Part shown: one piece after another, positions 2,902-63,569 of the stretch
Layout: each line of letters begins with the position of its first letter
How positions within the stretch are numbered: position 1 is the stretch's first letter
Assembly: GCA_000091205.1 (NCBI GenBank)
Contig: AP006487.2
Source: Cyanidioschyzon merolae
Lineage: Eukaryota
DNA: 64,000 nt
Strand: one strand, 5' to 3'
Translations under genes and position numbers: made by a program
The notes under the pieces: generated by a model
Told to the model about the DNA's origin: nothing
Databases searched by the model: none
What the model saw: only the letters and a program-made list of their open reading frames with translations

Positions 2902-5540
2902 TGTAAGCGTAGGGTACTCTTAGCTGTGCCAACCTCTCCCGACACCTTTACATATCCCAGAGCGTGCGAGTTCTGAACCCGAAACGCTACTCAGTGGAAA
3001 GCGCTTGTCGAGTGTCGACACGAGCGCCGCTTCCCGTTCCCCGGCAGCAGACCAGCGGCAGCAAGCGACGATTCGGGGGTTCAGGGAGGTGCCGATCCGC
3101 AGCCTGCTGGGACGGGTGCGCGCTCGCCAGCAACGCAGGCCGCCGGATACCGGGGCATGTCCACGGTGCACTCGCAGACGGCGTCGGGGTAGGCACGGAC
3201 GGCAGAGTGGGTATCCGTATGGGCGCTTGAAGGGAGCCTGATTGCCGCAGAGGTCCTCTTCGTGATTCATGGAACTTGAACGAATTTATGCGGCATGCAT
3301 CTTGCTTCGCTGGCTCTCGATAACAATCGCGCAGCCGTGGAAACCTTTGTTCGACGCATTGATGCCGCACCCGATAAGGACTAGGGAATGGAGTATGCGA
3401 GAGCCCGCTCCGTGCATCGCTGATGGTGTACGCAGCCGATAGCTCTGTTGCGCGCTTTCGCTTCAAGGAGCATCGCTGGGGACGCATTCGATGCATGCTG
3501 GTCGGTTTCATACCGAACAGAATTTGCGGTCGATCGACGATGACTCCAGAGCGTTCGACCCGAAGTTGATCGAGCACCAAATGTTGTTCAGCAGGTAGCT
3601 TCTGATGGAAGCTTTTGTTGCTGGTTCGCGGTGATGGACTCGGCGGTTGCCGATGTCTGGTGTGTTCTCGTGCGTTGCACGTTCGCGCACTGCGCCTTGG
3701 TCAGATACGAACGAAGCACGGATGTGCTCGTTTTGTTTCTGCGTTACGATCTTTTCTGCAGTTTTTGAAGATGAACTGCGCCGTCATTGGAAGTTTGCGT
3801 GTAAGAGCTTATGGACTTGCATGTAGCTCTAGGACTTTCGGTCGACTTTTTTGGAGTTGATGCTTCTCCGCTCGAATTCTGTTCTACACGGGAATCGAGA
3901 TGATTCTCGTCGCTCCTGGACCAGCATTCGTGCAAGAACTGATATCACGATACAACTCGCACGTATAGGCTTCCATTTTCCTCCTCGCCTTACGTGCAGC
4001 ATATTCAGATCACGGAAAAATCAGTTGTTCGATGTTGCTGTTTCAACGCAAGTTGCGTGCGCTGCAATTGGCGCCACTGGATGGACATGACACAAAAATT
4101 TGGTGTCGTCCATTGACGATTCGTTGAAAAGCACATGTGAAATGTTCTCGGAACATGTCACGTAAAATAACCAATTCCATTCCAAGTCCGTATTCTTGTA
4201 AGTTTTCGATCAAAGATGAGACGGTGCTCCAAAAGAGTATGGTACCTCCCAGGGGATATGCCTCCAGAATCACATGGTTTCGCTGTTTGCATGGAAAAAA
4301 GTTCTTGGGGCTCGGATTTTCCGCAAAGAAACGATCTCTCTCAAGGAGAAAAGCGTCATCGCTTTGCACGAAGCAAGCGTGGACGGATCCGAATTCGTCG
4401 AATTTTATCCATTCCGGACGCTTTTCCAGGTACTTGTTTCTTCATGGACAACAGCGTCGCGTTCCGTAAATCCTCGATCGAATGGGGCAACGAGCGTTTC
4501 TCTGTGCTGCGGTCAGAACACTCGCTGAAGAGATTTGGTAGCAGAAGCCCATTTTCGTACGGTACGGAGCTCGCGGGCAGGGTAACCGTAGACGGAATCC
4601 AATGGGACCTTCTGAGCCCGTCAAGCACATGTACCGAATGATATGGCAAGCGTTTGCACGCAACGCGGCAGCTTCACGAGCAGGAGATGTGCTTGACATT
4701 TGGGATCACTTGACGACCGTCAAGTTTCACTGCTGCAAAGCTAGCACCGAGGCAATATACAAAAGCATGAAAGCGGCAAAAAAGCCTCGATCGCATCTTG
4801 TGTCTGTGCATGAACTGCGTCACCAACAGGCGGATGCTGCGAAATCGGGAATCAAACGCCGCCACCTGCATCCTTCGGCTCTTGACAACGGAACTGGGAT
4901 CACAAGACACTCGTGCGCATTCAGAGCCGTAGACTAGAGATAGCAAAAGGAAGCTGTGCCCAAAAATTCCACAAACGCCGGTGTTGATCGTATTCAGAAT
5001 AGTCATAAACTTTGGTGTGAACGCCCGTGTTTTTCCCAGTGCACTTTTTTTCAAGCACGATTGCAATAGCAAAGCGTCTGGTGCAAGAGCGTTGCAATCG
5101 CCGTCGCTCCCAGGATACCGATCTGCCGTACGCGCCGCTGCAGGGTCCGCGGATCGCGCGCCCGTGCCAAGCAACGCATCCGCCCTTGGAGCGTTACGCG
5201 CAATGCATCGATGCGATGCATTGCGCTGCGCGCTGCAGGATACCCGCCTGCAGCCGATGCCGTGCGGTGTTCGATCTCCGCATCGACTTGCGTTCAGCGT
5301 TCCAGGGGTTTCGGTTACCGCTCAGCGGCACCTAGGAATCAGAACGCTGTGGAACAGAGCGGTTCTAGGTCTAGTGGACTGTGCCATTTAAATTCTAGGA
5401 AACTTGAACGTTTCTACGGGAGCAATACATCGTCAGGAACCCCAAAACATTAAAGTGTGGGAAGCTGTCGCCACGCGCTGCAAAGGTGCCCGCGTACGGG
5501 TGCGAGCTGCCGACTGTACCGAACAGAATTCGGTCTGAAA

Positions 5541-20506: not shown

Positions 20507-21592
<1,086 letters not shown>

Positions 21593-24500: not shown

Positions 24501-24559
24501 GGGGTCCTCTGGCGAGAGCATAAAGGAGTAAGCTCATTTTAAAGAAATTAAGGGATGAG

Positions 24560-25215
24560 CCGGGATGTAAACTCCTGAAGGCCGAAATGGAGGAACGTCA
24601 GCGAAGCACTTCGGATATAGAAAAGCCCGGAGCGCTGTTCGAGCAGCAAATGGCACAGAGGGCACGAGTTCGAGGACTCCGTGCACTGGTGCGTTCAACG
24701 AGCTCCAACAAACGCATGGAGTTCGTGAACAGGGACGAAAACGCTGCTATCAATATCAGACGATTTGCGGTGCCAAAAACGGGACCCGATGAGCAGACCC
24801 GATCCAACGTTGTGGGGTCAGCGTCTCAAACTCGAATTGCATATGGATAAACAGAAACAGGTAGCAGCCGGCAGGCAGGCAGGCAGGCCGTGCAACACTG
24901 GAAGGCGGCAGCACGTCGGTATACATTGAGCGTAACGACGCGAAGCGTTTTCGCTCTGATAACCACATAGCCCAGTCGTCGTATGCTTTTTCTGAGAACC
25001 GTTTCTCGTGATAGTGAAACGCATCGCAGTGGTACTGGTTGCGAATACTTCGCCAGGAAGGGTTTAAAAATCTAGTGACAAGCTGGGGCGTCTCTCCACA
25101 CTCTTGAACGGACACCGGGGACGCCTCCAGTTGCAGCGCACAGTCGTATGAGCTGCTGCCGCGTCGCACTGTACTCTTAAACGGACACGTGGGACACCCT
25201 AAGTTGCAGATCGCG
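24560..25215 (+). pseudogene. TnpB/Fanzor-like relic, family I copy A (3' module plus non-coding tail)
   Basis: AQRARVRGLRALVRSTSSNKRMEFVNRDENAAINIRRFAV (D codon 24734-24736). It aligns at nucleotide level with the copies at 42.2, 48.7 and 54.8 kb. Downstream, ~24900-25215 shares diverged blocks with the tail of copy B (cgctct..catagcc; acggacacgtgg). Confidence 0.55.
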
Positions 25216-29444: not shown

Positions 29445-32400
29445 CGCCACAGGCAGTACAACCGAGCATTTTGCCAGCAGCACCGCGCATGAGACGCAAA
29501 TCTACAGTTGTTGTGGCTGCATTCCTGTGCAATGACGACGGTTCCTCAGTGTATCGATCTGGACCTGGAATGTACTACGAAATGCTGCAAGCATCGAAGC
29601 GATGCTGTGTCGATATGCACCGGTTCCCCGCTGTATTCATATGCTCGATTCGTGCGGGACACGTGGAGGCTTCGACTCTCTGCGCCACCCTGAACAGAGA
29701 GCGTGCCCGCTACCTATCGCTTGTTACTTGCTACCGGTCTGGTTGGAGCGCTTTCATTGATCTCCTGGGGAACGCAGGAAAAAAGACCAGTTCGAGTCTG
29801 GCAATTGGAAAAGCGTGCCCCAAGTTTGACGCCCGTCTGAAGCATGCCATCACATCCTACGTCGCTGCTAAGGTCGTTTTCCGAATAATTAATTTCAGTT
29901 GGGGCTGCGTCGCCAAGCCGCGGACCCCGGATTTTTACTACTGTATCCATAGCGAACAGCGTAGTGCACTCCACTATAGGAAAACGACGAGTTGAGAGTC
30001 TCCTTTGGCACCTTGCTGACTATGATTTGGATTGCGAACTCCATGTGGAGTCGGTGCTGATCCGTTTTGCGCCAAGGAACAGCAAGTGTTCCATCCTTTT
30101 CCATAAGTGCTGTGGTGCAACGAACCACTTCAGCGAGCTCGAGTTGTAGAATCTCTTCGACAGTCCCTGTATACAGAGCAACTGCCTCTACTGCGCCAGC
30201 AAATGCGCTGATTGCGACTACGCAAGCGGTTCCCTGCTGACCGCAACACTGTGCAAGCGATGCTCAAGATACCGAGCGGTGCTCGGTACGTCCAAGATTC
30301 ACAGCTCCCAAGCTGTCGATTTCGCTTCAGAAAGCTGATCAAGTGGATGCTCCGTACAGCTGCGATTCGTAATGCAAACAAAGCACCAGGATACGCCTCG
30401 AGCGACATTGACCACAGACAGCTTGTAAATATGTCGCGATCGAGTCTATACATCGACTTTAGGGCAATTTGGGTTGAACGTGGGCATATTGCGCCACCCT
30501 CTTGCGCATCTGAGAGCACACCAGCACCCCAAGCATTCGACGCATAGAGGAATAGATCGCAGGCGTCGGGATCAAGCCGTGCCGCTTCCGCATGTCCGGA
30601 ATTTTTGCCGGCGATTGGCCAGATGCACGCTGCTACTACTGGAGCCAGCGCCTGCAGTATCTTGAGTAATCGTCAATTCCTGAGATGTTTTTGGTTGCAA
30701 TCAGAGCAGCGAATGTCCGATTACCCGTACCAGCACGCTCTTTTGGTTATTGTTTGGTTTTCTTGCAGGTATTCGATAAAAAGAATGCATCGTGTCGATC
30801 CGATTACAGTCGCTGGATGAATTGGTATTGTCTGTGGTAGCTCGCGAAAAGAACGGCCCCACCTGTGCCTGTCCTTCTATAATGAACTGGGGCATGAACC
30901 GCTTTTCTCATCGCTCTGATCCGACACGTCAGTCTCCCGCAGTAGAACCCTCCAGAACCTCTCTTCGACTGTTTCCTTGCCGATTGATTGTGTAGCGTAC
31001 TTGGATGAAGAAATACTACCAAAGTCACCGCTGGATTTTGACGCCTCCGTACCGCTAATGACAACGGTGATGAAGAGACCCAGAAATACGAATCGAAAAG
31101 CACGCCTGTATGCTAGATAGTCACGCGTCGAAGAGCGCAAGACTGATCTCGTCGTGAAACGCGAGCGCTTATCACAGGACGAACGAGAGTTCATCTCGTG
31201 CAACGAAATGTCCTTCGGGGGAAATGGTACACCTGCACTTGGCTACGCAAACCGGAGCAAACCACTGTTCTGAAAGACGAGCGAAACGGGACGGACGACA
31301 ACACCAGCCCTAGCAGCGATTTAATCCCTTGATCACCGAATCGTCGCCGAACGGACAAGATCGTTCAACAACTCGTGCTTGGTCGACGTATTCTGTGGCT
31401 TCTTTTTTCCCATTTTGTTCCGTCCGGCTCGTAGGTATCATCGGATTGCGTCAATCAGGAGCGGTCAAGGACACCGCAGCTGGCATCGCAGTTGAGCTGG
31501 TCTCTGTGCTGGCTTGTTTTCTCTGGCTCAATCGAAACGAATTCGTTTTTCCAAGACATCCCAGAGCATTTCTATGTTCATCGATGATTAAACGAATCTT
31601 TCGCGTTCGCGACACCAAAATATGCTGCGTACTTTTACGGATCGCAACCCCCCTTCACCGCGCTCGTCTTGCCTGGCTTTTCTGTTTCCTGCCTCGACGC
31701 GTCTCCTCAACCGATTGTTCATACAAGTTTCGGAAGCGAGATCGCCAGTTGTCTACACTCCACTCGATTTTTCGATCAAACCTTCGCGCGACAACACGAC
31801 ACAAATGTTCAGAGCAGATGATGCGATTCGACGTGAGCGAGGCATCAGCGTTTTGCGCATATGCGTACCAGCATATCTTGCCGCGTCGCCGCGCCATCTC
31901 GACGATCGAAGTATGTGAGGTGCCGGTCCTAAAACGTACCAGGCAAACCTCAGAAAGCAACATCATGTCCGGGTTCAGTTCGGGCGCTTTATGAGGCGCG
32001 CATTGTCGACGTTTTCCAGTCATGGTACTGGCCCAGAAAAGTGGGCACTGTTTGAAGGTATGCTACCGTTCAGAGAGAACACGAGCGATCAAGCGGCGCA
32101 CGCGGACGATCGTTACGGGGCGTTCATACGAGCGCGCGGAGGTCACCAACAGTTTCGGTTGTACAGAAGCAAGAAGCGTACATGCACTCACTTCGACTAA
32201 GAGTTGTAAACGAAAATCTCCGATATGTCGTGTGGTTGGGTGCCAGGCAATGGCGCTGGAAGCACTGGAGCGCGCGATGACTGCACCCTTGCGGACTTGT
32301 GGACGGCGTCCAACGAGTGCGGGAATCGATTCCATACGACTCCCGTAGATGCATTCAGGACGATGCCCTCGCATCAATAGCATGGGTGCTCAATGAAACA

Positions 32401-33700
32401 GGCAGAGAAAAAGCACCTGAAACAGAGCCGGATACACGAGACGGTGTACGTCAGGCCGAGCGAACATCAGCTGGCGAGAATATTGACGACCAGAGGATTG
32501 CAAAAGCGAGATTTCAGGAGCAAAATACCTCGATGTACATCCGGGAATGTCCGGTGTTCGCACAGCGCCCAACAGCTTGGTGATCAACGAACCTTTGAGG
32601 GAATCGCGCAGTACTTCGTGTAAACACGGATCTGAAACGCTGAAGACTTGCGATGGAAAACAACAGTGACCATGACAGCGTGTATTTCATCCATGTTTGA
32701 AGCAAGACACTTGTATGAGACGGTTCAGCAGTCCAGAATGGCTGCCATGCCCCATATATACACATGGAACGGTTTTCCTAGAAATTCATGAACGAATATC
32801 CTGCTCCGTAATTCGACTTGACGATGTACCGACATGCAAAGCGGCGTCCTAGGTGCTCTAGCCTAGACGCCCGCCCCCGAAGACCTGCACGGTGTCGCCC
32901 TGCGAGCCTTATTTACCGCACCATACATCCCTGGGATATTTATGATGGCTCCGGCCTTGAAGATCACGCGTTTGTGTGTACGTCAGCAGCGTCGATGCGT
33001 CGCTCTAAAATCCATCTACACAGGTGTTCACGGAATGCTCGGCATTTAAAAGCGAGCCCGCTCAACTTCGTATACAATGTGTCATGCATGTAGACTTGCA
33101 TTTTCGAACGAGATCCGTCATTGGGGCACCAGCTCGAGACTGATCAAGCATCAAGCTTCGTGCACGGTAGACAGGCTGTGCTATGAACGGTTCGGCATTC
33201 GACGCCAGGCGCTGAACCCAGACTTGCGTCACCGTACAGTGCGTTTAGGGTTCCATCAGCAGTGCCTCGTTCTTTGCGTTCGTCCTGCAATTCTCCAGGT
33301 CATAGAAGCGTATCCGCAGCATGAAACTGTTCAGTGTGAGCCGAAGTAGCAACATCCAGCATAGGCATTGAAGCGCGTGTCCTATAGATTCCAAGTGCCT
33401 GTGAGCGCTCCCGCACCGGCGATGCACCTTCGTACGAGGACGCGCTCCATACCAAGTCAGCCGAAACATTTCCTATGAATCAAGTGAGGCAGAACTCGCG
33501 ATTTGTGCACTAATCCAGAAGCACGCTTTCGGGAAAGCTTAGCAACAGAATTCGGGCGATTATGTTTTGGTCTATGGTCGAGTCTTGGCTGGGAATCCCA
33601 GCTACGCAATGGATACCGACGTCAGGGAAAGCGCTAACGCATACTCGGCACTCTACGGATTATATGAACGAGCCGTTGCCTCCAACAGGGAATATGGATG

Positions 33701-40277: not shown

Positions 40278-42009
40278 CCGCAGTCACCGAAAGCCTTCAC
40301 AAACGCAAGCACAATGCGGGCGCTGGAACGCACCACCGGAGGTGCTCAGCTTCCGGAGGATCCCGATACACGTCGCGATGGCGGACACGCGGGCATTCGA
40401 ACAGCGGCCGCCGTCGGCATCGCGCACACCCAGCGCACACACTGCAACGGCCGGGGTGCGGCGGCGCTCATCAGGGACGGATCAGCGCCGGCGTGCTGTC
40501 CTCCGGCGCGGGGCTGTCGACAGCCGTAGAGCGCCCGCCGTTCCCGCGGCTGGAGAGGCGGCGGCGCTCGCAGTTCCCGCTGCACCCTGGTGCGAGTCCG
40601 GGAGCCTGCACCTTCAGGTTGCAGCACTGAGGGCGGTGGGGATCGGCGTGGGCGCGCCCAGCTCCACAGCATGGCAGGTCTCTGCATGGAGTGCATTTGC
40701 ACAAGAAAGTCGCATCGAGGACTCTGCGTATCTGGACTGCATGTGCGCTTTGCCGATACACGTATACCAGAATAAGACGGAACAGGTCCACGCAGCGAAC
40801 ACGGGCGTGCCTAATAAAGTTTTGATCGCTTCCCGTAAGAGTCAACACAAGATTTTGTGCGTATTTTTGTGACTTGTTATTTTTATTGCTCTTTTTTTGC
40901 TGAATTTCAATGTGCTGGTCTCTAATGTGTCTGCAGCTCCGTTTGTCAGCAGTCGAAGAATGCTGATGGCAGCGTTCTCCTCCCGAGTTCGCAGCATTCG
41001 ATTCTCATTCACGCATTTCGAACAGGCAGGCTGAAGTTGCGATCTCGGCTGCGCTTGTCATGATCATATCCTTTGTAGACAGCCTCAGTGCGCCCTTTGC
41101 AGCATGAACCTTGGCCACGGTCAGTGATTACCGTACGTGCACGACACGACACCTCTTCCGAAAAATGCCCTGTGCCGCACCAAGGAATGCTTCGCTGATC
41201 GGTGTGCGCGTTTGACTGGTACAGAGGGCCCGATGTGTTCCCTGTATTCGTTTTCGCGCCCGGTGCCGTGTTCTCCGATCATGGGCTTGCTCATGGCGAT
41301 CCTTCCAGGGTGTACGCTATCCCCTGCACGCACACGCTGTAACATTGGATGGGCGATTTTTTTGGAACGCGATCTTGTTCATGATGGAGCGGTTGGCGGA
41401 AGGGAATTCCAGGATGGTGAGCAATAGAAAAAATTTAGAGTCGTTTATGTTCAGTTCCTAGAACGCAGTGACATACTCTCTACTCTGAGTAATCGCCGCA
41501 ATGACTGGTGTGCAGCACGAGTCGTTGCTTCCGCTGTGAGCGGCGAGGCTGGATATCGGCGTCATGGCTGGTGCCTGCTCGCAGACGGGTGCTGCGATGG
41601 TCACCTGGCACCGCTTATGGCACCCAGAGAACCGCTTCTGCTGCACGTTCGAACAGACGACGGAGCCAGCGGACCTCTGTGACGACCTCGAAAGCTAGCC
41701 AGGTATTCCAGCTCCTTTGGCGGTGTTCCGCGACGGTTTCATCTCGGCAATGATGCAGCGGATGCACCTCGAGGACAATGGAAACCTACGCTTATCGAAG
41801 TCTGAGCGCGTCTTGTCGCAACGAACTCCAGAGACTGGCATGTTTCGCGTCTCGCATGATACGCTGGCCTCGTTTTAATGTTGCACCTCATTTGTGTTCC
41901 GCTTGCAGGTGCGTGTCATCAAGTGCTTCCTCGCGGGTTATAGCGGACGTGTTCAAAGAGCGTCCATTTTCAAAAATAAACTATCCTAGGGAGATGTGTA
42001 TGTATGAAA

Positions 42010-42690
42010 ATCGGGGATCCTGATGTGCTAGTGTCGCCGGTTTCAACAGAAAAAACGAAAAATTCTCTTCTCACCGACCATCGAGCGAAGGAGAGCAAGT
42101 TTTATGAAAAAGTAGAAAAAGAGAGGAACGGCGGGTGAAAAGTTTTTGTATGCCTGATGTGACGATTACGAGACTGTAACGGGACAGAGGGCACACTGAC
42201 GAAGGCGCCTTGCATTGATGAGTCCCATCAGAGGCAGCAAACGCATGGAATTCGTGAACAGAGACTTGAACTCCGCCATCAAAATCAGACCATTTGTGTT
42301 ACAAAAGGCGAGGCGCGCGGAACTTACGTTAGCGAAAGGTTTGGGACAGCCTCTCAGGTTCGAAGTGTACACGGGACAAATTGAAACCGATATCTGGTTG
42401 CTGGTCAGAAAAAGGCTTCGAGGCGCCTGTGAGTGCGTATCATTTTCCCCTGTCGAGCCGACGCTCTCTGTGGTGCGGCATAGCCGTTCTGTCTCCGTGC
42501 AAGGACCGCATCGGCCCTGTAGACGCTATCGCCGACGCTCTGGGCATGCACTCGGCGCACGATAGAACGTACGGAACGACCATTATATCCGAGAGAAAGT
42601 ATGGGTTACGGAACGTGGAAGTAAGGCGTGGAATGAGGGATACCTTACAGCGCGCTGATGACGAGCGCAGAATCCGAGAACGCTCGCCAC
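42010..42690 (+). pseudogene. TnpB/Fanzor-like relic, family I copy B (5'-truncated, plus tail forming the left palindrome arm)
   Basis: SKRMEFVNRDLNSAIKIR (D codon 42263-42265). Upstream, ..ccatcgagcgaagg.. aligns with copies C and D. Downstream conserved block LVRKRLRGACECV. The tail from ~42452 is the left arm of the palindrome. Confidence 0.5.
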
Positions 42691-42987
42691 AGCAACCACT
42701 TTGGCATTTTTTCACTGACAAAACGTTTACTTAGGCCAGCGTTCTCCGATTATGCGCTTTTTTCTTTTCTTTCTTTTTTTTCAGTGCGAGGTGAGGTATC
42801 CATCAACCCCCTACCTCCATGTTACATTACCTATACTTCGTCTCGGATATTCTGGTCGTTTCATACGTCCTATCGTGTGTGCCTAGTACCTGCCGTTCCG
42901 TATTCGCGTCTGCGCTTGAACCGCTGGAGCAGATAGCTCATAGGGCTAAAACAGCTTTTCTATACCACAGAGGGCGTCGGCTCGAGG
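42452..42987. repeat. Large imperfect palindrome (inverted duplication): arms ~42452-42688 and ~42734-42987, 45-bp centre
   Basis: The reverse complement of 42795-42878 matches 42558-42644 (cacgatag.acgta..gaacgacca..atatccgaga..aagtat.ggt...gggatacc). It extends inward (gcgcagaatccgagaacgctcgcc 42665-42688 vs revcomp of 42734-42757) and outward (ctgtcgagccgacgctctctgtggt ~42450-42474 vs revcomp of 42961-42987). It also shows as YFLSDIMVVPYVLSC / YFVSDILVVSYVLSC in opposite-strand ORFs. Confidence 0.85.
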
Positions 42988-42989
42988 TG

Positions 42990-45900
42990 TGCTTCATCCG
43001 ACGTAGAATCGGGTCTCGTCGTCAGTTTGTGCTCGTACAGTCTGCGGATGCAGGCTTGCCTTCGCTGCACGACACGCTGGAGAAACTTGGTTGTTAGGAT
43101 GAATTCTGGGAGCTGCCTCTCTCCTTCGTGATCATGCATGGAATGCATTGTTGTCGGTTGGCTATGCGGATTTGTGCTTGACACCCACTACAGAAGGAAG
43201 GCGTAGAGAGCACTAAACCCGTGTGCGCATCCGATCCGCTGGACCTTCCGCCTAGAAGGTAGCACGTGAGTTTGTTGGCCACTAATGAGCACTGAGGATC
43301 TGTTAGCGAACCATCAGTTGCCAGTGCTGCACTCAGAGTGAGTGTCCGGCCTTCGACTATCACGGTGTTGCCGAGCTGCTGCTGTCCTTCGAGGAGCTCG
43401 CTGCGCTCCTGCTTCTAGCGCGGCCACTGTAGGCCTAAATATGTCAGCGTCTCGGGGATTTCGTCTCGATAGCAGGTACAGTGTGACTCCCAGTGCGATT
43501 CCAGGGTTCCTATCCGGCTTAGAGCCGGTGCTGGTAGCCAGGAGCCACCAACGCTGATTTTGGCGAGCCACTGGGTACCTCGAGCAAGTCCCGGGAATTC
43601 CAGCGCCTCCCACCAGTAATTGCATGTGTATGCTAGGTTGTAGTTCCGGTATAGAGTCAAGCCGGCGTTACTCGCGCGACTGGTACTGTATCTACGTTCC
43701 CATATTGTTGTTCGGACCGTTCGCTTGAGGCGACGGGAGAATTCTATATTCCTGGGGAATGATTGGGTAGCGTGTTTTCGCCTAAGAGGCGCTTCAGCCA
43801 AATCTGCGCTGATTTCATCCAAGTGATCTTGCGGTGCGTTGGGGTCTGCATGGATATCCGACTGAACCAGGTGTTCATGGTTGGCCCTTTGCCCCATATG
43901 CGTGCCCGGCAGCCTGCTGCTATCGCCTCTGTCGAGGGTATTTGGAGTTCAAGTCCGAGTGCCAGCAGGTTGGTTGCTCTGCTCTGCATTGAGCATCCAA
44001 CTACAACGAGTCGCATTGCCCTGTTGGCGGCTGTCTGCAGACGCGAGGCATTTGTGTGCTTCATGCCGCACCATTCAGCACCACAGGTCGCAGGCTGGAT
44101 GATACATATCCTTAGTGCGCTGGTACGGATTGCTAAGGGGATAGAGGGGTCGGATAAGAATGGGCATGCGATCGCTGTACGTCTATGCATCTTGGCGATC
44201 ATCTCGTTAACGTGTGCCTTTTCGTCGAGCGTCGGCGTGAGACAGACCCTAGGTAGCGATATTTTTCCACGATTGGAATTTCCTGATTCTGCAACCGCCA
44301 CGAGCGATTGCGAATGCTCTGCGAGTCTCCATGGATGGCCATGACGCCGCACTTCGATGCTCCTATGCTCATCTCCCAGCGATCGGCCCAGGCGCTGACT
44401 TGTTCCATGCTAGCCGCAAGCGTTTCCGGGGCGGGTGCCAACAGCACGACATCGTCCGCAAATAGAAGGCCTGCGAGGCGGTTCCCATATGGGCGCTCCC
44501 CATCGGGCATCTCCACAGTCTATCCACGGCACCTCAAGCCCGTATTGTCTGTAGTTGTTAAGCAGATCGTTGATGAAGATGTTGAAAAGGAGCGGGGATG
44601 CAGGATCGCCCTGTCGCAGTCCACGGCGGATTCTTATCGAAGGGGTTCTTGAGCCGTCGCCTAGTCGGATGCGCATCCACGAGTCTGCATAGAGCGCACG
44701 GAAGAACGCTAAGCACTTTGCGGAGACTCCGGCTCGTTCCATCTTCATAAATGGAGCCTCATGCGGGAACGTGTCAAAGGCCTTTTGGAAGTCGACGAAG
44801 CATACGTAAGTTGGTTGTTGGTCGCTAATGAAGCGACGTTGCACCACTTCAATGAGGGTCAGGGCATGGTTCATGCACTCCTCGTGGCTCCGGAATCCAG
44901 CCTGTTCTGGGGCGAAGAACTTGCGTTCCTGGAGGCCGCTGTGGATACGGTTCGTGAGCATGGCGCGAAGTAGCTTCATGATTGACGGGATGAGGCGCAT
45001 AGTCCGGTAGATGTTCATGTCTGTGTGTGTGTGGGAGTCCTTTTTGAGGATCGGTACGACCTCGACAGCCCTCCGTACATCTGGGATGTACGCTTCTTCA
45101 AACATGCGTTGAATGAGCTCCAGAAGGCGTTTGCCTAAGATTGTGTCAGGTTCATCTGGTATCGATGGTGTCCCTGTTGTCCCGTCTTTTGGGGTCGCCA
45201 GTTTCATCCACTCCGCAGGGATACCGTCGATGCCAGGTGTTTTGCGATTGCTTGAGCATAGCAGAGTCCGAACAGATTCAGGCCAGAAAATTGGGTCGTT
45301 CCATTCCGGTACCGGGTCGAGGCGCGGTAGTTCTGCAGCATATCGGTGCCAATAGATTCGGTCTTAGCAGTGCCCAGTTGCGTCTTCATGTAATTCTGTG
45401 CCGTGGTCCGTCCAGGCCTCATTCACTGAGGCACGCTCCGTCCTCAGCGCTTCCTTTTAACAGTTGGTGTGAGCCCCAAGCACTTTCTTGGTGGGTCCAG
45501 TCTCGATCGGATGTAGCCTGGGGTTTCATCTTCGTTGGTGCTCTTCAGCATAGATTCCGCCAGGGAGGCCATTTTGCGGTTTCGATCCTCTCGTTTGTCT
45601 TCTCTGGAAAGTTTCTTCGTTCTTTTGATAGCTTCCTCATGTTGCGCCTGTAGCGCCGGTAGCGCTGCCTTCGCTTCCTTGTCTCCGGCGTTGGCGCGTA
45701 TGGCGGTGCGGTTGACAATCTTGTTGAGTCGGTGGCATTCATGAATCCGAGTTTTGGTACGTCGTTTGAGGTACTGCGGCTTGCTACTGTTGTGTTCAGG
45801 TGCAAGCAGTCCCAATTTTCTGGCAATCTTCTGATTCCCATCTACAAACTCGCGTGCCAATTGGTCTGAAGATTTGTATTCACGGCTTTTCGGATCTTCA

Positions 45901-46950
45901 GCGCTGTGAGCAGGTGCCTGGGATTGGCGACGGCTTTCTTGAGTTCCAGCTGGGGTGCCCTTTCGGGGGATACCTTGTGATGGGCTCGTTTGGGAGTTCT
46001 TCTTTCTATTCTTCTGTTTTTTCTTGCTGGTCTACTTCTTCTTCGGGCTCTTTCCTGAGCTGCTTTCTCTGGTTATTTTGCATTTAAGGGGATCATGAGG
46101 TTTCTGTGTCTCTTTCTCCGTACCTCGTTGGGTCTCTTTTCCAATTGTAGAGTCCTCGACTTGTATCAGTTCTTCATTACTGTACTGGTAATTCGATATC
46201 TCGTGGTTAAATACCGAGGCGATCCCGCTAATATTCCATGATGCGAAACCTATCGAGTCGTAGCGCATAAGGGAATAGGAGTAACGCTGCGGTACTCCAG
46301 AGATACGTTGTCGATTTAGACGCAGCTTCCACAGGGTGTGTGAGAGCACATGCCACCATTGCCTCCTGCATTCCAGTCGTTCACTGAGTGTCTGCCGCAG
46401 CGCTAGCGTAGAATCAGATGTACATTAGTCAAGGTCGATTCGAATGCGAACTTTGTCTTTCCGGACGCGTGAAGCTACCCTCAACCATTGGGAAAAGTCT
46501 GCAAACCACCATTTCAGCGGCTTTGTATCCGCTCCCCAAACACATAGGCGGGCAAGTCGCTTATTCCACTTTCGACAGTGAGCATACTGCCAGCTGTCTT
46601 CCAAAGTATCCGCCGAGATTGTTTCCAAAGTTGAGGTAGGTACTCAAGGTAGAAGGTGAAACTGAGCCCGAATTCAGGGATGGATCCAGTATTTGTGCCC
46701 GAACCTGCAGCGTTGTTTCGGGAGCAGCGGATGACTGCGCTCAGAATTATCGTCATCATTCTCTGCTACTGCCTACGCCCCTCCGTTCGTTGCGGTCAAG
46801 GCCCCTGGCGTGGACTTCCTTCGCAGTCGCTCAAGCACCCCGCGTTAACCCACTTTCAGAGGTTCTCCGGAAAGACTAGACCCCTTAGGCGGACGTGGTT
46901 TGTGGGGCTTTTAAGATAGTGGTTCCTTGATAAATAGTTTGCGACTAGTT
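42990..46950 (-). mobile_element. Non-LTR (LINE-type) retrotransposon relic: APE-like endonuclease plus reverse transcriptase, multiply frameshifted
   Basis: RT blocks on the minus strand: PGIDGIPAEWMKL, NIYR.., FDTFPHE, RRGLRQGDPASPLLFNIFINDL, GLLFADDVVLLA (D codon 44456-44454), YLG, PATCGAEWCG. C-terminal Cys motif: CTCYRDEIPETLTYLGLQWPR. Endonuclease-like fragments at 46.0-46.9 kb (FYLEYLPQLWKQSRRILW, VWGADTKP, NHEISNYQ). The 3' limit is uncertain. Confidence 0.8.
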
Positions 46951-47159
46951 TGCATCGCGCTCGGTGAGCGCACCTCGGAGATCGGGCAGGCATGAGACGC
47001 TACGCGCATGCCACTGTTGAAGGGAAACACGTGACCTTGATCAATAGCGTGTTGTTCTGCTGTAAAAGTCGGATTCCCGTTGAGGGCGTAGCAAAGTATA
47101 GTTTTCAGTTCATTTCTGTTTCAACCCTCAAGTAAAAATACTCGAGTGTTTTTTCGCAG

Positions 47160-47167
47160 TATATAAG
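47160..47167 (+). promoter_or_regulatory. TATA-like box (TATATAAG) ~210 bp upstream of the family I copy C start codon
   Basis: Direct reading, inside an A/T-rich block (47100-47340) that is unusual for this window. No functional evidence. Confidence 0.2.
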
Positions 47168-47376
47168 AGAAGCGTTCAAAGAGCATTCTTTTTAAAAAAA
47201 CTAAAAAAAGGAAAAGTATGTAGGAGCAAGTCCACGATCCTGGAGGCCCACTGTCGCAGGCTGCCAGAAAGAAAACAAAAAACAGTGCCGAGTCCAGAAG
47301 AACAGGGAGAGAGAAGAAGAACCGAAGAGGGGAGGCCCTACGTCGAAGGTGGCAAGAAAGACGACTGTACAACGAG

Positions 47377-48980
47377 ATGGTGGTGAAAGCCTTTCTTCTT
47401 GGACATATCAAGGATCCCTACAGGGAAAAGTTGCGAGACGCTATCGAAAAACGTGTCGACTCGTATTCCGAGAGTATTATCAAGGCGTCGTCAGGGCTGA
47501 TGCATTTGGCGAGGGAGATGTATCGCGACATGGCGCACATGGAAACAGTCGAGATTCCGGACGAGTTTCTCGACATGACCTTTATTTGTCAGCTAATGCT
47601 TGGTACAGCGGAAACGCGGAAGGAAAATGTGCTAGTGCACGCCCTCCACGAAGAACATACCTTTTACAGCTTCAATGGTACTCGATACAAGGTGACGGAG
47701 ATATTTACATCTATGGGGCGATGAAGTACCTCACGAATCTGAAGAACCATTTGACAATGAACCTCGAACGTTTCACGGTACGCGCCGTGTGTGCACTCTA
47801 CCCGGGCCTATCTCGCAAAGGAAAATGGGCGATTATCAATGGCATCACGAAAGATCGTAAGCATGAAGATGAGACGGATTTCGTTGACAAGAAGGCGTCA
47901 AACGAGAGCACGAATGAAGCTTCTGTAATCCGTGCTGCTATTCAAGAGCACCGTGCAATCCTGGGACTGGATTATCCAGCAGAAAAGATATCAGAGTTGA
48001 AAAAAGATAAGGAAACATACGATCGCCTCATTCTACGGTATTTCGTGTTTCTGGACCAAGAACTCGAACGCGAGGCGGAGATGAAGGTGAATAGGGGAAA
48101 AATGAAGAGTGGGAGAGACGGAAGGCTGTCCTAACGGGGAAGCGCTTCAACGTGGTTCCATTGTGCAACATCAAGTCAGATTTTGTGACCATCGGCTCCG
48201 GCGTCCTTTACGGCATCATGAAGCAGATCAGTCCGGAGTTCAGTGTCAGCAGGGAGGACTTCACCGGCGAAAACCGGGAGACGTACTGCAAGAGTATCTT
48301 CGATTTCAAACGTCTGAGAGTGAGCAAGCAAAAGTTGTTTACTGGGATGATCGTAACCGATGGAGTAGAATTGTGTGCAAACTATCGGCGGTTGAAGAGA
48401 GATCGGCCAGTCCCTCCCTCGGCTGCGCCCGTGACGAAGGATCAAGAAAACAAAGAGGTGTATCCTGCGACGCAGGAGGTGGAGGATAGAGACCTTGTCG
48501 TTGACGTGACCAAGGATGAAGAAAGGGAGGAGGCGGATCTTGCGACGCAGGAGGTGCAGGATTACGACCTTGTCGTAGGCGTGGACCCTGGGAATACGAA
48601 TGTCCTAACCATCGCAGCACCGAAGCGTGCGGAAGATGGAAAAGTGCCAGCGGAATCCTGAAGATATACAAAAGTACGGACCGCTGACGGAAGGGCGAAT
48701 GGAAAGGAGAGCGAAAGTTCGAGGATTGCTTGCATCAGTAAGTACAACCAGTGATGGCAAGAAACGGATGGAGTTTGTGAAGCGAGGTTTTAATGCCGCA
48801 ATCAATCTACGGAGATGTGCGGTGCTAGAGAATAAACCTCCAGACTGGACAAGAAGGAACCTTGTTGGACAATCTCTCAAAGGTGAACTATATGAGAGAA
48901 AGCTGGAAGCAGTAGTGGGTAGCCAGTCCAAAAAGACGGGGGGGGGGCGTCTGCACGTCAGCTGGAGACGATTTGTCTAA
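47377..48980 (+). pseudogene. TnpB/Fanzor-like gene, family I copy C: longest copy, N-terminal ~400 codons retained, three frame changes and an internal deletion of the RuvC-II/zinc-finger segment
   Basis: Four consecutive ORFs in frames 1,0,2,0: 47377-47724, ~47700-48134, 48152-48661, 48627-48980. RuvC-I-like [17 protein letters not shown] (gac 48584-48586). RuvC-III position KRMEFVKRGFNAAINLRR (G instead of D, ~48786) lies only ~67 codons later. A 60-bp internal duplication gives [14 protein letters not shown] / [15 protein letters not shown]10 homopolymer at 48938-48947. Confidence 0.6.
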
Positions 48981-49117
48981 GGCGCGTTCGCCGCCATTGC
49001 TGCGTACTGCCGGCGTCGTTCGACTTCGAACGGCGTTCGTGACCGAAGCTCATCCGCGGATCCAGCTGCACGCCGCTGCTTCATTCAGGACGCGTTGTAT
49101 AACAACGTCAGGGAACC

Positions 49118-49438
49118 ATGACGAAAGGAACATCTTCCAAGGGTCGCCGTCACGGCAAATCACATACACTCTGTATCCGTTGTGGACGACGATCGTACCA
49201 TATCCAGAAAAGTACCTGTGCGAGCTGCGGGTACCCGTCGCCGCGAAAGCGGACTTACAACTGGAGTTTGAAGAGCAAGCGGCGACGCACTACAGGAACT
49301 GGGCGCATGCGGTACTTGAAGACGGTTGCTAGACGGTTTCGAAACGGGTTCCGCGAAGAGAACACTCGTAAGGCGATAAAGAGGACAGTGGCTGCCGCTC
49401 CCGCACAGGAGAGCGGCCAGGAAGCAGCGAGCTCTTGA
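49118..49438 (+). CDS. RPL37: 60S ribosomal protein L37 (eL37)
   Basis: [68 protein letters not shown] is the canonical eL37 sequence with its C4 zinc ribbon. Confidence 0.95.
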
Positions 49439-54303: not shown

Positions 54304-54350
54304 GACGAACGAACGAACGAACGAACGAACGAACGAACGAACGAACGAAC
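54304..54350. repeat. (GAAC)n tetranucleotide microsatellite, ~11.5 units
   Basis: Direct reading. It lies 15 bp upstream of the proposed PP2C ATG on the minus strand and is translated as FVRSFVRSFVRS in the extended ORF. Confidence 0.95.
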
Positions 54351-54569
54351 AGGTAGTGCAAAGAACACACCGTACCGGTAAGTCGCGCGTGCCGTGGAGG
54401 CGAACGCTGTCGTTCATTCGGCAGCGCTCGAGGCTGGCACCGACTTGCCCGACTAGATGCACTACTTTTTGCTCTTTGACCACAGTGAGATTGATTAGTC
54501 AGGTGTGTGTCATCAAATGCCTTATTCGGTTTATAGCAGATGGGCTGCAAAGTGCGTTCATTTAGAGAA

Positions 54570-55060
54570 ATAGAGAATATAAGATATAGGTATGGAGATT
54601 GAAGTCGAGGATCCTGGATTGCCTCTGTCCACGGGTGTCGGAAAAGAACGGGAATTTTCTCATCTTTTCGACGATCGAGCGAAGAAGACCAAGAAGAGGG
54701 GAGATGGACCACAAAAATGTGTTTGCCCGACGGGGCGATGACGAGAATCTAATCGCACAGAGGGCACGAGTTCTGGCAATCCCTGCATTGATGCGTTGCA
54801 CCAGATGAACTGCATAGAACGGCTCGTGAACGGAGACTTCGACGTCACAAGCAATATCAGGAGATGTGCGGTGCTGAAAACGAGACTCGCGGAGCTGACG
54901 CGAACTAAATTCGAGTGGCAGCCTCTAATACCCCCAGTGTGCCTGGATAAAAACCGCAACCGATGGCAGTCGGCGGATAGAAAAAGACTGGGCGGTGTCT
55001 GCGCGTGGGCAGCTATATGTACTCTCGATGGTGGTAAAACATTGCACGTTTTATAAATCA
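54570..55060 (+). pseudogene. TnpB/Fanzor-like relic, family I copy D (most degraded)
   Basis: ILDCLCPRVSEKNGNFLIFSTIERRR aligns with [21 protein letters not shown] of copy C. AQRARVLAIPALMRCT then CIERLVNGDFDVTSNIRRCAVLK (gac 54835-54837) aligns with KRMEFVNRDENAAINIRRCAVL. The tail block is RKRLGGVCAW. Confidence 0.45.
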
Positions 55061-59139: not shown

Positions 59140-60375
59140 AGGTTCTTCTCGACTTGTCTTTTCAGATGTAGAGCTGTGACTTTTCGAGAGCAGCAACAAG
59201 GGCTTGAGCACTCGTGTGTCGGTTTAGGATTCTCGGCCATAGTTTCAGAGTGGTTTTTTCGACGCTCTTCCACTAGGACTCGTTACATCACCGAAATCAA
59301 GACCATTCCCGATGTTCCGGAACTAGGGTTCGTAAACGAACCAATATTCGTCTCCAATGTGTACGTAAAGGTTTCCAATCTTCTCAATATCTTACTTTTG
59401 TAGCGTGCTCAAGCCACGTATGCTTGTAGTTTTGTCTCTTTCTTTCTCAAGGCAACTCATTGATATCGCAATGCTCGCCATTGCTTCGACGAGGGAAAAT
59501 GCTGGACGTCGTCCCTCGGAGACTTGTTCACGAGTTCATACCGACAATACGCGCAACATGCCACTTCGAATCATGCATTGCTTTCAAGCGGTACACTCAA
59601 TGCTCTCTGCGGCGGTCAACGAAACAGGATTCGCTATCTGCCTCGTACGTCTCACAGGACATACTTCCGGAGGCTGCAGTCTGTCTCTATTTTGCCTGGA
59701 ACGTTGTCTAGATTTCGGAATTGAGTCATCCGGGTGTCCGTGTCGAGTGCTACGTACGTCACTGTTTTGCACGAAGGAAGCGTCAAGGGATCGAATACCT
59801 TCGACTTGTTATCCAATCTGGATTTACCCCCCGATGTTTGTTTCATCACGAACAACATCGTGTTCCACCAATACGTTATCGAACGGAACAGGGCGCGGTT
59901 GGACTTGCAGCCATCAGCGCCGTCGCCGAGTACATCGCTCAGATCAAGCACGTGATCGCAGAGCACGGCGCCGGGTGCGGAAACTGCAATGGATATCAAG
60001 GGGAATCTTCTCTTCTCCGAAATGGCAAGTAGCCTGCGATGAAGCACGGGATCGCGCGCTGTAGGACGGCGCTCGGAGGACGAGGAGATATGGTCGATGC
60101 ATAGGCACACTTGGCAGCGGTCAAATGTCACCGCTGTGAAGCGCGGACCCCAGCTGTACACAAAAACAGATGAAAACAGCAAGCGAAGCGCGGATCGCGA
60201 TTTTCACCTGTGCATGGTTTGCGTGACCAGCAGCCGGACGCAACGGAATCGGAACTCGAATGCCGCCATCAACAACCCGCGAATGCTGAGAACGGAACCG
60301 AAGACTCACGAGAGACCAGCATATGTAGATCAGCAGATAATCGAGAAGGAAAGAAAGTAGTCTCAGAAAATGCAC
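59140..60375 (+). pseudogene. TnpB/Fanzor-like RuvC nuclease relic, family II copy 3
   Basis: In order: VSEWFFRRSSTRTRYITEIKTIPDVPELGFV; VNETGF; CFITNNIVFHQ (RuvC-I position, N codon 59854-59856); AEYIAQIKHVIAEHGAG; NVTAVKRGPQLYTKTDENSKRS (resembles the v.v.E.yTSKtC..C block); HLCMVCVTSSRTQRNRNSNAAINN (C-x2-C plus RuvC-III position, N codon 60253-60255). Several frame changes. Confidence 0.55.
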
Positions 60376-61835: not shown

Positions 61836-63569
61836 ATGCACGCGGGGGCTTTTTTGTCGGCACAACCAAGTGGTACGCTGGGTTACACGGCTAACCTTTG
61901 CCAGAGTTCTTTCGGCAAGCACTTGGATGCTCACTCTACGGCGCTCGGAAGCGCTGTACCCGCTTTCCGACGTTCACGTCACCGGCGGGGCGCAGGCGCC
62001 TTGCTCCTGCGACGCCGGTCGCTCCTCGCCGAGTGCGAGCAGCGTGGCAGACTGCTCAGGTCCGCAGCTACGAAAGGACAGAGGGACGTCGAAAGGCACA
62101 CCGCTACAAAGACGCTGGTGCTCACTCGACCGGTCTTTTACTCGAGGTGTCCTCAGCACCACAAGGCGTTCGAGAGACCAATAGCACGCTGGATGCAGGC
62201 AGCTTCGCTGTCGAGAACAGGCGGAACAGCGCGTGCCTCGGTGCCAAGCTTCCCGACGGCGCTGCGCCACATTGCGAACACTCTCCAGGAACCGCTTCAG
62301 TACACAGACTTTGTTGCAGTGGAGCGCGCGCGTCGGCATGTCGAGGCGCTGCTGCGGGGCGGGCCCCAGAACCTACCGGCTTTTGAGTTTCTGGCACCTG
62401 TCTCCGAGGAAGCGCCGCAAAATGCTCGCGGGCCGCGGAACCGCGCAGCGCCGTCGCGCTATCCCTCGCGAAGCCCGGGCGGTGTTGCACCACCCCATCG
62501 CTACTATGAGTTACGCTTGCGGCCACCGGGTGAAGAGATCGTTCTGCGGTCTAGCGATTATAAGGAGCGATGCTGTGGGCGCATGGGCGAGGAATGCCTC
62601 GCTAGCCAAGACTCGAATGGTGTCCAGTCATCGAGCGGCTCTTGCGAGCGCGAAGGGACTGCGTTTATTCGAGTTCCAGGGGTTGTAGATTGGACGGCGA
62701 AAGGCGCTCTCGAGAAATGGTTTGCACGAGCATCTCGTTGGCAACTGTTTGACGACGGCACCTTTGCTACCACCCAACGGCCGGTGATTGAGCTTTCCCA
62801 TCGCGAGGAGTCGGCAGCAGCCGCACCGTTCGCTGAGCCAGTCGTTGGATTCCGGATACATGATCGCCAATGGAGCCGCTACCTCTGCAACCATCCACGC
62901 GTCATCGCGATCGGTGACGTACATGGCTGTATCACAGAGCTGCAGGACCTACTCCGCGTCTGCGACTATCGACCTGGCGACGAGTTGATTCTGCTCGGAG
63001 ACCTGGTAGCAAAGGGCCCCGATTCGCAAGCCGTCGTGCAAATGGCCCGTGAAATCGGTGCTCGGGCCGTGAGAGGCAACCACGACCACGAGGTCATTCG
63101 TTGTCGGGAAGCAATGATGCGAGGCCACGATCCCAGCTACGCCTCCGTCGATCATCAGCGTATCGCGCGGCAACTGAGCCAACAGGAGCACGAATGGTTG
63201 CGGAGCTGCCCCTGGTACATCCGCTCAGAGGATCTGGAAACGGTCTTTGTTCACGCCGGATTCCAGCCGGATGTGCCTTTCGAGGAACAGCTGCCTCGCC
63301 ACATGATGAATCTGCGTTCTGTGCTCGAAAACGGTGCTCCAAGCGCTCGCCACTCGAATGGCATGGCTTGGGCGCGCCTCTGGAAAGGTCCGCTTCGTGT
63401 TGTATTTGGACATGACGCATACATGGGCCTCCAGCTCTGGGACAAGTGCATCGGCCTGGATACCGGATGCGTGTATGGTGGTAGACTCACAGCGCTGCTT
63501 TTGCCCGAAAATCGCCTGATATCTGTCCCTGCACGAAAGATGTACGTTGCTCCACGCAAACGAGGATGA
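61836..63569 (+). CDS. ApaH-like / PPP-superfamily metallophosphatase with ~340-aa uncharacterised N-terminal region
   Basis: VIAIGDVHGC (GDxHG), ILLGDLVAKGPDS (GDxVxxGP), VRGNHDHE (GNHD/E), VFVHAG, VVFGHD. Start codon uncertain: ATG 61836 is the first in frame, and internal Mets exist. Confidence 0.75.
   Translation: MHAGAFLSAQPSGTLGYTANLCQSSFGKHLDAHSTALGSAVPAFRRSRHRRGAGALLLRRRSLLAECEQRGRLLRSAATKGQRDVERHTATKTLVLTRPVFYSRCPQHHKAFERPIARWMQAASLSRTGGTARASVPSFPTALRHIANTLQEPLQYTDFVAVERARRHVEALLRGGPQNLPAFEFLAPVSEEAPQNARGPRNRAAPSRYPSRSPGGVAPPHRYYELRLRPPGEEIVLRSSDYKERCCGRMGEECLASQDSNGVQSSSGSCEREGTAFIRVPGVVDWTAKGALEKWFARASRWQLFDDGTFATTQRPVIELSHREESAAAAPFAEPVVGFRIHDRQWSRYLCNHPRVIAIGDVHGCITELQDLLRVCDYRPGDELILLGDLVAKGPDSQAVVQMAREIGARAVRGNHDHEVIRCREAMMRGHDPSYASVDHQRIARQLSQQEHEWLRSCPWYIRSEDLETVFVHAGFQPDVPFEEQLPRHMMNLRSVLENGAPSARHSNGMAWARLWKGPLRVVFGHDAYMGLQLWDKCIGLDTGCVYGGRLTALLLPENRLISVPARKMYVAPRKRG

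Follow-up and report, generated by a model that had tools for sequence, protein, structure and literature searches.

The only Fanzor1 family listed for Cyanidioschyzon merolae is the transposon CMe-1A (Bao & Jurka 2013, Mob DNA 4:12; PMC3627910), whose roughly 150 copies each share about 80% identity with a consensus of 3169 bp. It encodes a 734-aa protein (CMe-1), is without terminal inverted repeats (TIRs) and without recognisable target-site duplications, and the first 635 bp (5') of its consensus are common to TE-N2_CMe (PMC3627910). In the Fanzor1 enzyme SpuFz1 of Spizellomyces punctatus, the residues D383, E541 and D606 coordinate two Mg ions (Saito et al. 2023, PMC10432273), and Fanzors have as their hallmark a rearranged RuvC-II, in which Gly or Pro occupies the canonical site and an alternative Glu follows downstream (Jiang et al.). 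Here we use comparisons with the consensus, with metagenome loci and with protein profiles to study a Fanzor-like locus, copy A, in a 64,000-nt stretch of C. merolae contig AP006487.2 (the whole stretch is called the window below). We find that copy A is, with a probability of roughly 0.93, a dead copy of CMe-1A, the sole Fanzor1-carrying transposon family of C. merolae, and that its RuvC core is collapsed by a deletion that probably arose by repeat slippage or microhomology-mediated repair and is found in copy A alone. CMe-1A itself is not new: Bao & Jurka published it in 2013, together with its host, its copy number and its assignment to Fanzor1. Since CMe-1A members are only about 80% identical to their consensus, decayed copies are expected, and the significance of one more is small.

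Copy A as a member of CMe-1A

We aligned the locus to the majority-rule consensus of CMe-1A given in Additional file 2 of Bao & Jurka 2013. Copy A (46956-49035) matches consensus positions 648-3169 with 84.6% identity over 1554 bp, 88.1% over 135 bp and 85.6% over 382 bp (blastn and pairwise alignment), and blastn against the published consensus returns E=0 over the 1554 bp, a similarity far above chance. Nucleotide identity is at least 80% over most of the length of copy A, our threshold for membership in the family, and the same left and right limits recur when it is aligned to the metagenome loci L001-L006. Three ORFs (open reading frames) of the window are exact C. merolae 10D proteins, encoded together on a single record of 528,682 bp, which places the element in that genome. 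A search with a 528-aa translation stitched together across the broken frames found 112 relatives, all of them unnamed metagenomic proteins, several intact at 634-752 aa; against the 734-aa CMe-1, the same translation is 75% identical (421/560 aligned positions). Together, the consensus alignment and the identity to CMe-1 make copy A one copy of a published family in the very genome in which the family was described. A DNA self-comparison of the window at default sensitivity shows no other copy of the locus; the other pieces discussed below were found by protein, profile or consensus searches only. The features of copy A are as follows.

46956..49037, + strand: copy A, the Fanzor1-bearing unit of CMe-1A, consensus 648-3169 (blastn and pairwise alignment to the 3169-bp consensus)
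47160..47167, + strand: TATATAAG, TATA-like, about 55 nt 5' of the ATG assigned below as the true start, in an A/T-rich leader
47218..48980, + strand: decayed Fanzor1 ORF (pseudogene) with native ATG and native TAA stop (48978-48980), from the stitched translation against the consensus protein
47221..47223, + strand: TAG stop as codon 2; the consensus reads MEKEV, copy A M*EQV
47271..47312, + strand: three 1-nt insertions, net +3, which scramble about 14 codons of a Lys/Arg-rich region, a putative nuclear localisation signal (consensus 895-1000 aligned to 47207-47315)
47689..47690, + strand: 1-nt deletion (consensus 1375, in a G-run), frame 1 to 0, from the consensus alignment
48092..48093, + strand: 1-nt deletion (consensus 1779), frame 0 to 2, from the consensus alignment
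48430..48579, + strand: two 75-bp acidic tandem units just 5' of RuvC-I (self-comparison; a 75-bp insertion relative to the consensus)
48584..48586, + strand: RuvC-I Asp codon GAC in GVDPGN, retained
48635..48639, + strand: junction of a 521-bp deletion (GATGG microhomology) that removes consensus 2246-2766 and shifts frame 2 to 0 (comparison with L001 and the consensus)
48786..48788, + strand: GGT (Gly) at the RuvC-III Asp position; NRDFNAAINI has become KRGFNAAINL
48938..48947, + strand: G10 run, an in-frame 3-nt expansion of consensus ACTGGGAGG that turns KKTGRR into KKTGGGR (alignment)
49012..49037, + strand: 3'-terminal hairpin GGCGTCGTTCG-ACTT-CGAACGGCGTT, the element end, 57 nt past the stop codon

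The original prediction had reconstructed the gene from four abutting ORFs in frames 1, 0, 2 and 0, and these are indeed present, at 47377-47724, 47349-48134, 48152-48661 and 48627-48980, with every quoted peptide in place. Judged by alignment to the consensus protein, the ORF of copy A starts at the ATG at 47218, 53 codons upstream of the previously assumed start at 47377. The roughly 400 N-terminal codons said to be retained are present but not intact, as they are interrupted by the codon-2 stop and several frameshifts. The G10 run, TATATAAG at 47160 and the A/T-rich block upstream all exist as described: the GC fraction of this leader is 0.32 (47085-47217), against 0.556 for the whole window. 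The position homologous to TATATAAG reads TTTATAGC in the consensus and in two short derivatives of the family, c42 and c54, and we regard TATATAAG as a putative promoter element.

An internal duplication had also been called correctly in kind but not in size: rather than 60 bp, it is a tandem of 75 bp (25 codons), with units at 48430-48504 and 48505-48579 that are 80% identical. The 25-aa acidic unit (..ATQEVQDxDLVVD..) occurs once in the consensus, twice in copy A and, counted by eye, about five times in the relative P0001, and L001 gives repeated 75-bp matches. Each acidic unit repeats the first half of the RuvC-I strand, and the number of units is variable across CMe-1A (P0001, L001, L005, L006).

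Copy A keeps about 80% of the ORF length. Because only one of the three catalytic residues is left and there is a stop at codon 2, it is incapable of making an active nuclease. The codon-2 stop, the five 1-nt insertions and deletions, the Asp-to-Gly change in RuvC-III and the 521-bp deletion would all represent neutral damage accumulated after insertion.

The RuvC core and the 521-bp deletion

To interpret what is missing from copy A we turn to its intact relatives. A PDB search with a profile of five of them returns Fanzor1 structures only, the best being SpuFz1 8GKH (E=2.7e-6 over 373 profile positions); together with the identity to CMe-1, this bears out the description of the locus as a Fanzor-like gene. 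Intact members are TnpB-like proteins of 734-752 aa with a Lys/Arg-rich N-terminus and the RuvC-III Asp in NRDFNAAINI. The GxDPG Asp, the VDEFRT Glu and the NRDFNAA Asp of the CMe-1 family align to residues 777, 935 and 1000 of the 8GKH fusion construct, that is, to native D383, E541 and D606. GVDPGN in copy A is thus RuvC-I, as originally proposed. The canonical RuvC-II position of the family is a Gly (VVAYGAG), and the alternative catalytic Glu in VDEFRTS is the residue that aligns to SpuFz1 E541, so the family carries the rearranged RuvC-II of Fanzors. It departs from bacterial TnpB both in this Gly at the canonical RuvC-II Glu position and in the spacing of RuvC-I and RuvC-III, which is 240 aa against about 170. 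Pfam scans of the stitched protein and six intact relatives gave no match, the TnpB models included, in a scanned set that was without PF26935/DUF8286, the precomputed match. An AlphaFold2 model of P0001 from an 8-sequence alignment was too poor to use (mean predicted local distance difference test score 41.7, predicted template modelling score 0.28).

Measured against this family, copy A retains the RuvC-I Asp and has lost the RuvC-III Asp, for which Gly stands in KRGFNAAINL (GGT, 48786-48788), 67.3 codons after RuvC-I; this replacement had been recognised before. The 67-codon spacing is not native to the family, in which RuvC-I and RuvC-III are 240 aa apart, or to SpuFz1, in which D383 and D606 are 223 aa apart. 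The deficit noticed originally is therefore real, but the yardstick used for it, the roughly 170 residues of TnpB, is unsuited, and the Fanzor1 value of about 220-240 aa applies. What accounts for it is the 521-bp deletion, which corresponds approximately to CMe-1 residues 448-621 (EDGTDGNLRQKDM...TLQRVE) and takes with it the helical insert after RuvC-I, the RuvC-II strand VVAYGAG, the alternative Glu and the first half of the zinc-ribbon-equivalent segment. Both RuvC-II motifs lie within it, and copy A is accordingly without the rearranged RuvC-II that its family has. The original reading of what is missing, the RuvC-II glutamate and most of the zinc ribbon, is essentially right, with the loss in the zinc-ribbon-equivalent segment covering its first half.

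The anatomy of the junction points to the origin of the deletion. In L001, an intact paralogue, the segment is flanked by CGAAGCGTGCGGAAGATGG followed by TACTGAC (5') and CGAAGGGTCGGGATGG followed by AAAAGTG (3'), which form an imperfect direct repeat. At the junction the window reads GCGTGCGGAAGATGGAAAAGTG, with the halves GAAGATGG and AAAAGTGCC, and the breakpoint falls in a perfect microhomology of 5 nt in L001 (GATGG) or 6 nt in the consensus (AGATGG), inside an imperfect direct repeat of 16-19 nt. Given a breakpoint microhomology embedded in a direct repeat, the deletion would have arisen between CGAAGCGTGCGGAAGATGG and CGAAGGGTCGGGATGG by replication slippage or microhomology-mediated repair. 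That the gap is instead a collapse of the assembly or a spliced-out intron, and not a genomic deletion at all, is a practically negligible prospect: an assembler could in principle be misled by the 16-19-nt repeats at the junction, but they are much too short for read collapse, and C. merolae 10D has a finished genome assembly. An intron fares no better, since no choice of boundary within the microhomology gives GT...AG ends, the segment that copy A is missing is coding in all other copies, and a segment absent from the genomic DNA is by that fact not an intron of copy A. An intron or retrocopy origin of the gap was rejected for the lack of GT...AG ends and the coding status of the segment elsewhere.

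Now we consider whether this deletion is shared. The original prediction held that a deletion derivative, rather than the intact gene, is what had spread, and on this point the data say the opposite. We scored the deletion as the distance between two probes that flank it, in 84 external copies and the window; the 80 metagenome loci encoding relatives that we examined are the best-scoring of at least 375 tblastn-confirmed stretches. The probe distance is 516-520 nt in 84/84 external copies and -4 in the window, which leaves copy A as the only deleted one among the 85 copies scored. In every database protein with both motifs, 240 aa separate DPG from RDFNAA. No database protein contains a junction-like peptide, and where an ORF stops shortly after RuvC-I, its sequence still continues with TDGNLRQKDM. 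L002-L004, the paralogues nearest to copy A at 85-89% identity, share an insertion upstream of it that resembles a long interspersed element (LINE), and they are intact at the deletion site. The consensus, built from about 150 genomic copies, contains the segment as well. The collapsed RuvC core thus appears to be a deletion confined to copy A, as judged from these copies, and not the mark of a propagating nuclease-less lineage.

The case for an amplified RuvC-less derivative had rested on two further copies, B and D, with RuvC-I to RuvC-III spacings said to be equally short (about 66-77 codons). No coordinates were given for them, and we took them to be among all the other Fanzor-derived pieces of the window, which are these.

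24554..24838, + strand: c24, a 5'-truncated 3' fragment of CMe-1A (consensus 2736-3022) that keeps NRDENAAINI; its DEPG corresponds to HELGC
31868..32640, + strand: c32, a highly degenerate remnant of a Fanzor1 lineage that is more divergent (match to protein P0077, E=1e-14)
41906..42428, + strand: c42, an ORF-less mini derivative whose 3' block spans consensus positions of about 2815-3082 (consensus alignment)
54500..55006, + strand: c54, a second mini of the same architecture as c42 (consensus alignment)

It is true that other pieces of the window carry a D(E)PG-like triplet, 60-82 codons ahead of their RuvC-III motif, and that the minis c42 and c54 represent another deletion derivative, with a much larger deletion, which is found again at other loci. 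The triplets, though, are not RuvC-I: in c42 and c54 the counterpart of the DPG is the N-terminal EDPGGP (copy A 47236-47244; residues 6-11 of the consensus protein), the DEPG of c24 aligns to HELGC, and none of c24, c42 and c54 has the acidic repeat or RuvC-I sequence. Moreover, c24 and c32 keep sequence from within the segment that copy A has lost (about 35 nt in c24; RLY..KKR, G.GAG and VDAFRT in c32). Set against these points and against the undeleted state of all 84 external copies, all spanning proteins and the consensus, an amplified form with the internal deletion of copy A is extremely improbable, and the short spacing of B and D, which we could not confirm, most likely rests on a non-homologous DPG. 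The N-terminal DPG of CMe-1 can be mistaken for RuvC-I.

Several points weigh against reading copy A as a dead CMe-1A copy with a deletion of its own. Both samples are biased towards intact copies, since the external loci are the best-scoring of at least 375 matches and the database proteins are called ORFs. The comparison covers 85 copies and not the rest of the C. merolae 10D genome, where a second copy with the same junction is formally possible. On the protein side, a canonical four-Cys zinc ribbon is not evident in the CMe-1 family: the equivalent segment aligns to C942-C985 of the 8GKH fusion construct and reads THHELGC...GLLALVS, without the four Cys. Finally, both the RNA-guided nuclease activity and the omega-RNA of CMe-1 are putative, being assigned by homology.

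Minis, relics and the element end

The two minis join consensus positions of about 819-969, which hold the TATA-like leader, the ATG and the first 21 or so codons including EDPGGP, to about 2815-3090, a 3' block that encodes the last 95 or so codons including RuvC-III. The result is a DPG 75-82 codons before RuvC-III whose homologue in copy A is 47236-47244, not RuvC-I. The two minis are collinear with each other at 66-69% identity, and the same architecture is found in L024 6896-7414 (-), L020 6294-6857 and L026 7517-7776 (-). A deletion derivative did therefore propagate long ago, but one without almost the whole ORF and unrelated to the deletion of copy A. We considered whether the 3' breakpoint of the minis is the junction of copy A and rejected this, because in the consensus alignment the 3' homology of the minis starts at about 2815-2906 and not at 2767. 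The minis measure about 520-560 bp and have in common a linking segment, TTCTCTTCTCGCCGACCATCGAGCGAAGGAGAGCAAG, that is not recognisably aligned to the consensus there. A (GAAC)n / ACGAACGA microsatellite lies at about 54340-54390, just 5' of c54. This old ORF-less mini subfamily of CMe-1A is a minor lead.

Another minor lead is c32. It is what remains of a second and more divergent Fanzor1 lineage in a species for which a single family was listed: its aa identity is higher to the metagenomic protein P0077 (33%, E=1e-14) than to P0001/CMe-1 (27.5%). At 60106-60318 there may be a sixth piece, but its match falls short of significance (E=0.93). All five Fanzor-derived pieces of the window (six with the doubtful one) are on the + strand, an arrangement with a probability of about 0.03-0.06 by chance.

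At the 3' end, DNA conservation runs past the stop codon, whose position is variable among copies, to the terminal hairpin. Among unique element ends, 45/51 fold at -8 kcal/mol or below, and a 40-nt window around the hairpin of copy A folds at -16.7 kcal/mol. The hairpin is 10-12 bp long, and two variants fold, GTTCGAC-TTT-CGAAC and GTTTTTC-TTTT-GAAAGG (51 unique copies, L001-L086). Because the two variants do not pair in the same register, strict covariation is lacking, and we do not claim that they are compensatory. RNAalifold recovered no conserved consensus fold from either 51 or 30 element 3' ends (-9.4 kcal/mol and -5.0 kcal/mol, the latter with a covariation term of -0.07). The flank after ...GGCG often reads TT(T)G(N)TGGTG; this may mark the true element end or reflect a target-site preference.

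If Fanzor1 enzymes such as SpuFz1 are a guide, an intact CMe-1 protein would bind an omega-RNA transcribed from the element 3' end, with a guide read from the flank, and its RuvC domain would cut DNA matching that flank. One could then suppose that copy A has been kept because its 3' 350 nt or so (a putative omega-RNA scaffold and hairpin) and its promoter-like leader still work, supplying a guide in trans to an intact Fanzor1, and that the same is true of the minis. The 3' region is retained by every CMe-1A-type fragment in the window (c24, c42, c54 and copy A), conservation continues beyond the variable stop codons up to the hairpin, and ORF-less 'ghost' elements and extra copies of Fanzor RNA (fRNA) are known in other Fanzor1 families. 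Retention of the 3' end is explained equally well by 5' truncation during transposition, however, and both the missing consensus structure and the mismatched hairpin registers speak against this idea, as does the divergence of the minis from each other, 31-34%, as in neutral decay. We therefore rate maintenance for such a function as very improbable. The notion that copy A and the minis persist as putative omega-RNA sources and transposon-end carriers, used in trans by the few intact CMe-1 proteins, we rate as quite unlikely; were it true, the guide of copy A would be read from the flank starting at 49038, about 80 nt upstream of the start codon of RPL37.

Surroundings and comparison with described systems

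With copy A understood as a dead CMe-1A member, we can place it among its neighbours. It ends about 80 nt before the RPL37 start codon, no tRNA genes were found in the window, and the features around it are the following.

20519-21592: BAM79375.1, exact match to a C. merolae 10D protein
42707..43965, + strand: upstream module X, with a TE-N2_CMe-like stretch at 42810-43013 (L001 comparison, consensus match)
43966..46951, - strand: LINE-like insertion directly upstream of copy A, with reverse transcriptase fragments at 44199-45207 on the minus strand (RVT_1, E=3.3e-19)
49118-49438: RPL37, BAM79382.1, exact match to a C. merolae 10D protein
61836-63569: BAM79387.1, exact match to a C. merolae 10D protein

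The LINE-like insertion (about 3 kb) is absent from L001, in which module X adjoins the Fanzor unit directly, and present in L002-L004. The TE-N2_CMe 5' module is not part of copy A, whose homology starts at consensus 648 (window 46956); module X and the LINE-like insertion intervene between this point and TE-N2-like sequence some 4 kb upstream, at 42810-43013. Since the module is not contiguous in copy A but is contiguous in L005 and L006, copy A belongs to a 5' variant of CMe-1A. Right after c42, TE-N2_CMe-like segments at 42453-42623 (-) and 42810-43013 (+) form an inverted pair about 190 nt apart, and they match consensus 84-282 at 76-81% identity. The composite of module X, LINE-like insertion and Fanzor unit (42707-49037) is common to L002, L003 and L004 at 85-89% identity. 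Downstream of it these loci carry other genes, with an SMC gene where the window has RPL37, and the composite was therefore moved or duplicated as one block. Long eukaryotic contigs of the JGI metagenomes Ga0080006, Ga0078972, JGI24721, Ga0123519, Ga0207433 and Ga0209012, presumably from environmental relatives of Cyanidioschyzon, contain at least 375 CMe-1-like copies.

How, then, does this locus compare with the systems that have been described? The ISDra2 TnpB (IS200/IS605) belongs to the same superfamily as the CMe-1 family and shares with it a single RuvC domain, a D/E/D triad and a RuvC-III of the RDxNAAxNI type. The CMe-1 family differs in having Gly at the position of the RuvC-II Glu E278, in a protein about twice as long with a Lys/Arg-rich N-terminus, in its eukaryotic host and in the lack of a TnpA. 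As for SpuFz1, the intact relatives align to it from a WED-like segment through RuvC-I, the alternative Glu and RuvC-III, and its distance from RuvC-I to RuvC-III, 223 aa, is near the 240 aa of the CMe-1 family. The kinship is nevertheless distant and visible by profile only; the CMe-1 family is without the CxxC...CxxxxC cysteines of SpuFz1, no inverted repeats are seen, and copy A is without two of the three catalytic residues. A parallel to the minis is found in 'ghost Spu-1' and the extra fRNA-only Fanzor1 copies (PMC10432273; PMC10530073), as c42, c54 and the copies in L020, L024 and L026 likewise keep both ends and have no ORF. The difference is that c42 and c54 are old (about 66-69% mutual identity) and degenerate, and copy A is not among the minis. 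The closest comparison of all is with the CMe-1A consensus itself. Relative to it, copy A has a codon-2 stop, frameshifts, an extra 75-bp unit, the 521-bp deletion and the D-to-G change in RuvC-III, and in place of a contiguous 635-bp TE-N2_CMe 5' module it has the LINE-like insertion and module X upstream; it nonetheless has the same ATG, the same stop and the same 3' end as the consensus, and, as in the consensus, no TIRs are seen.

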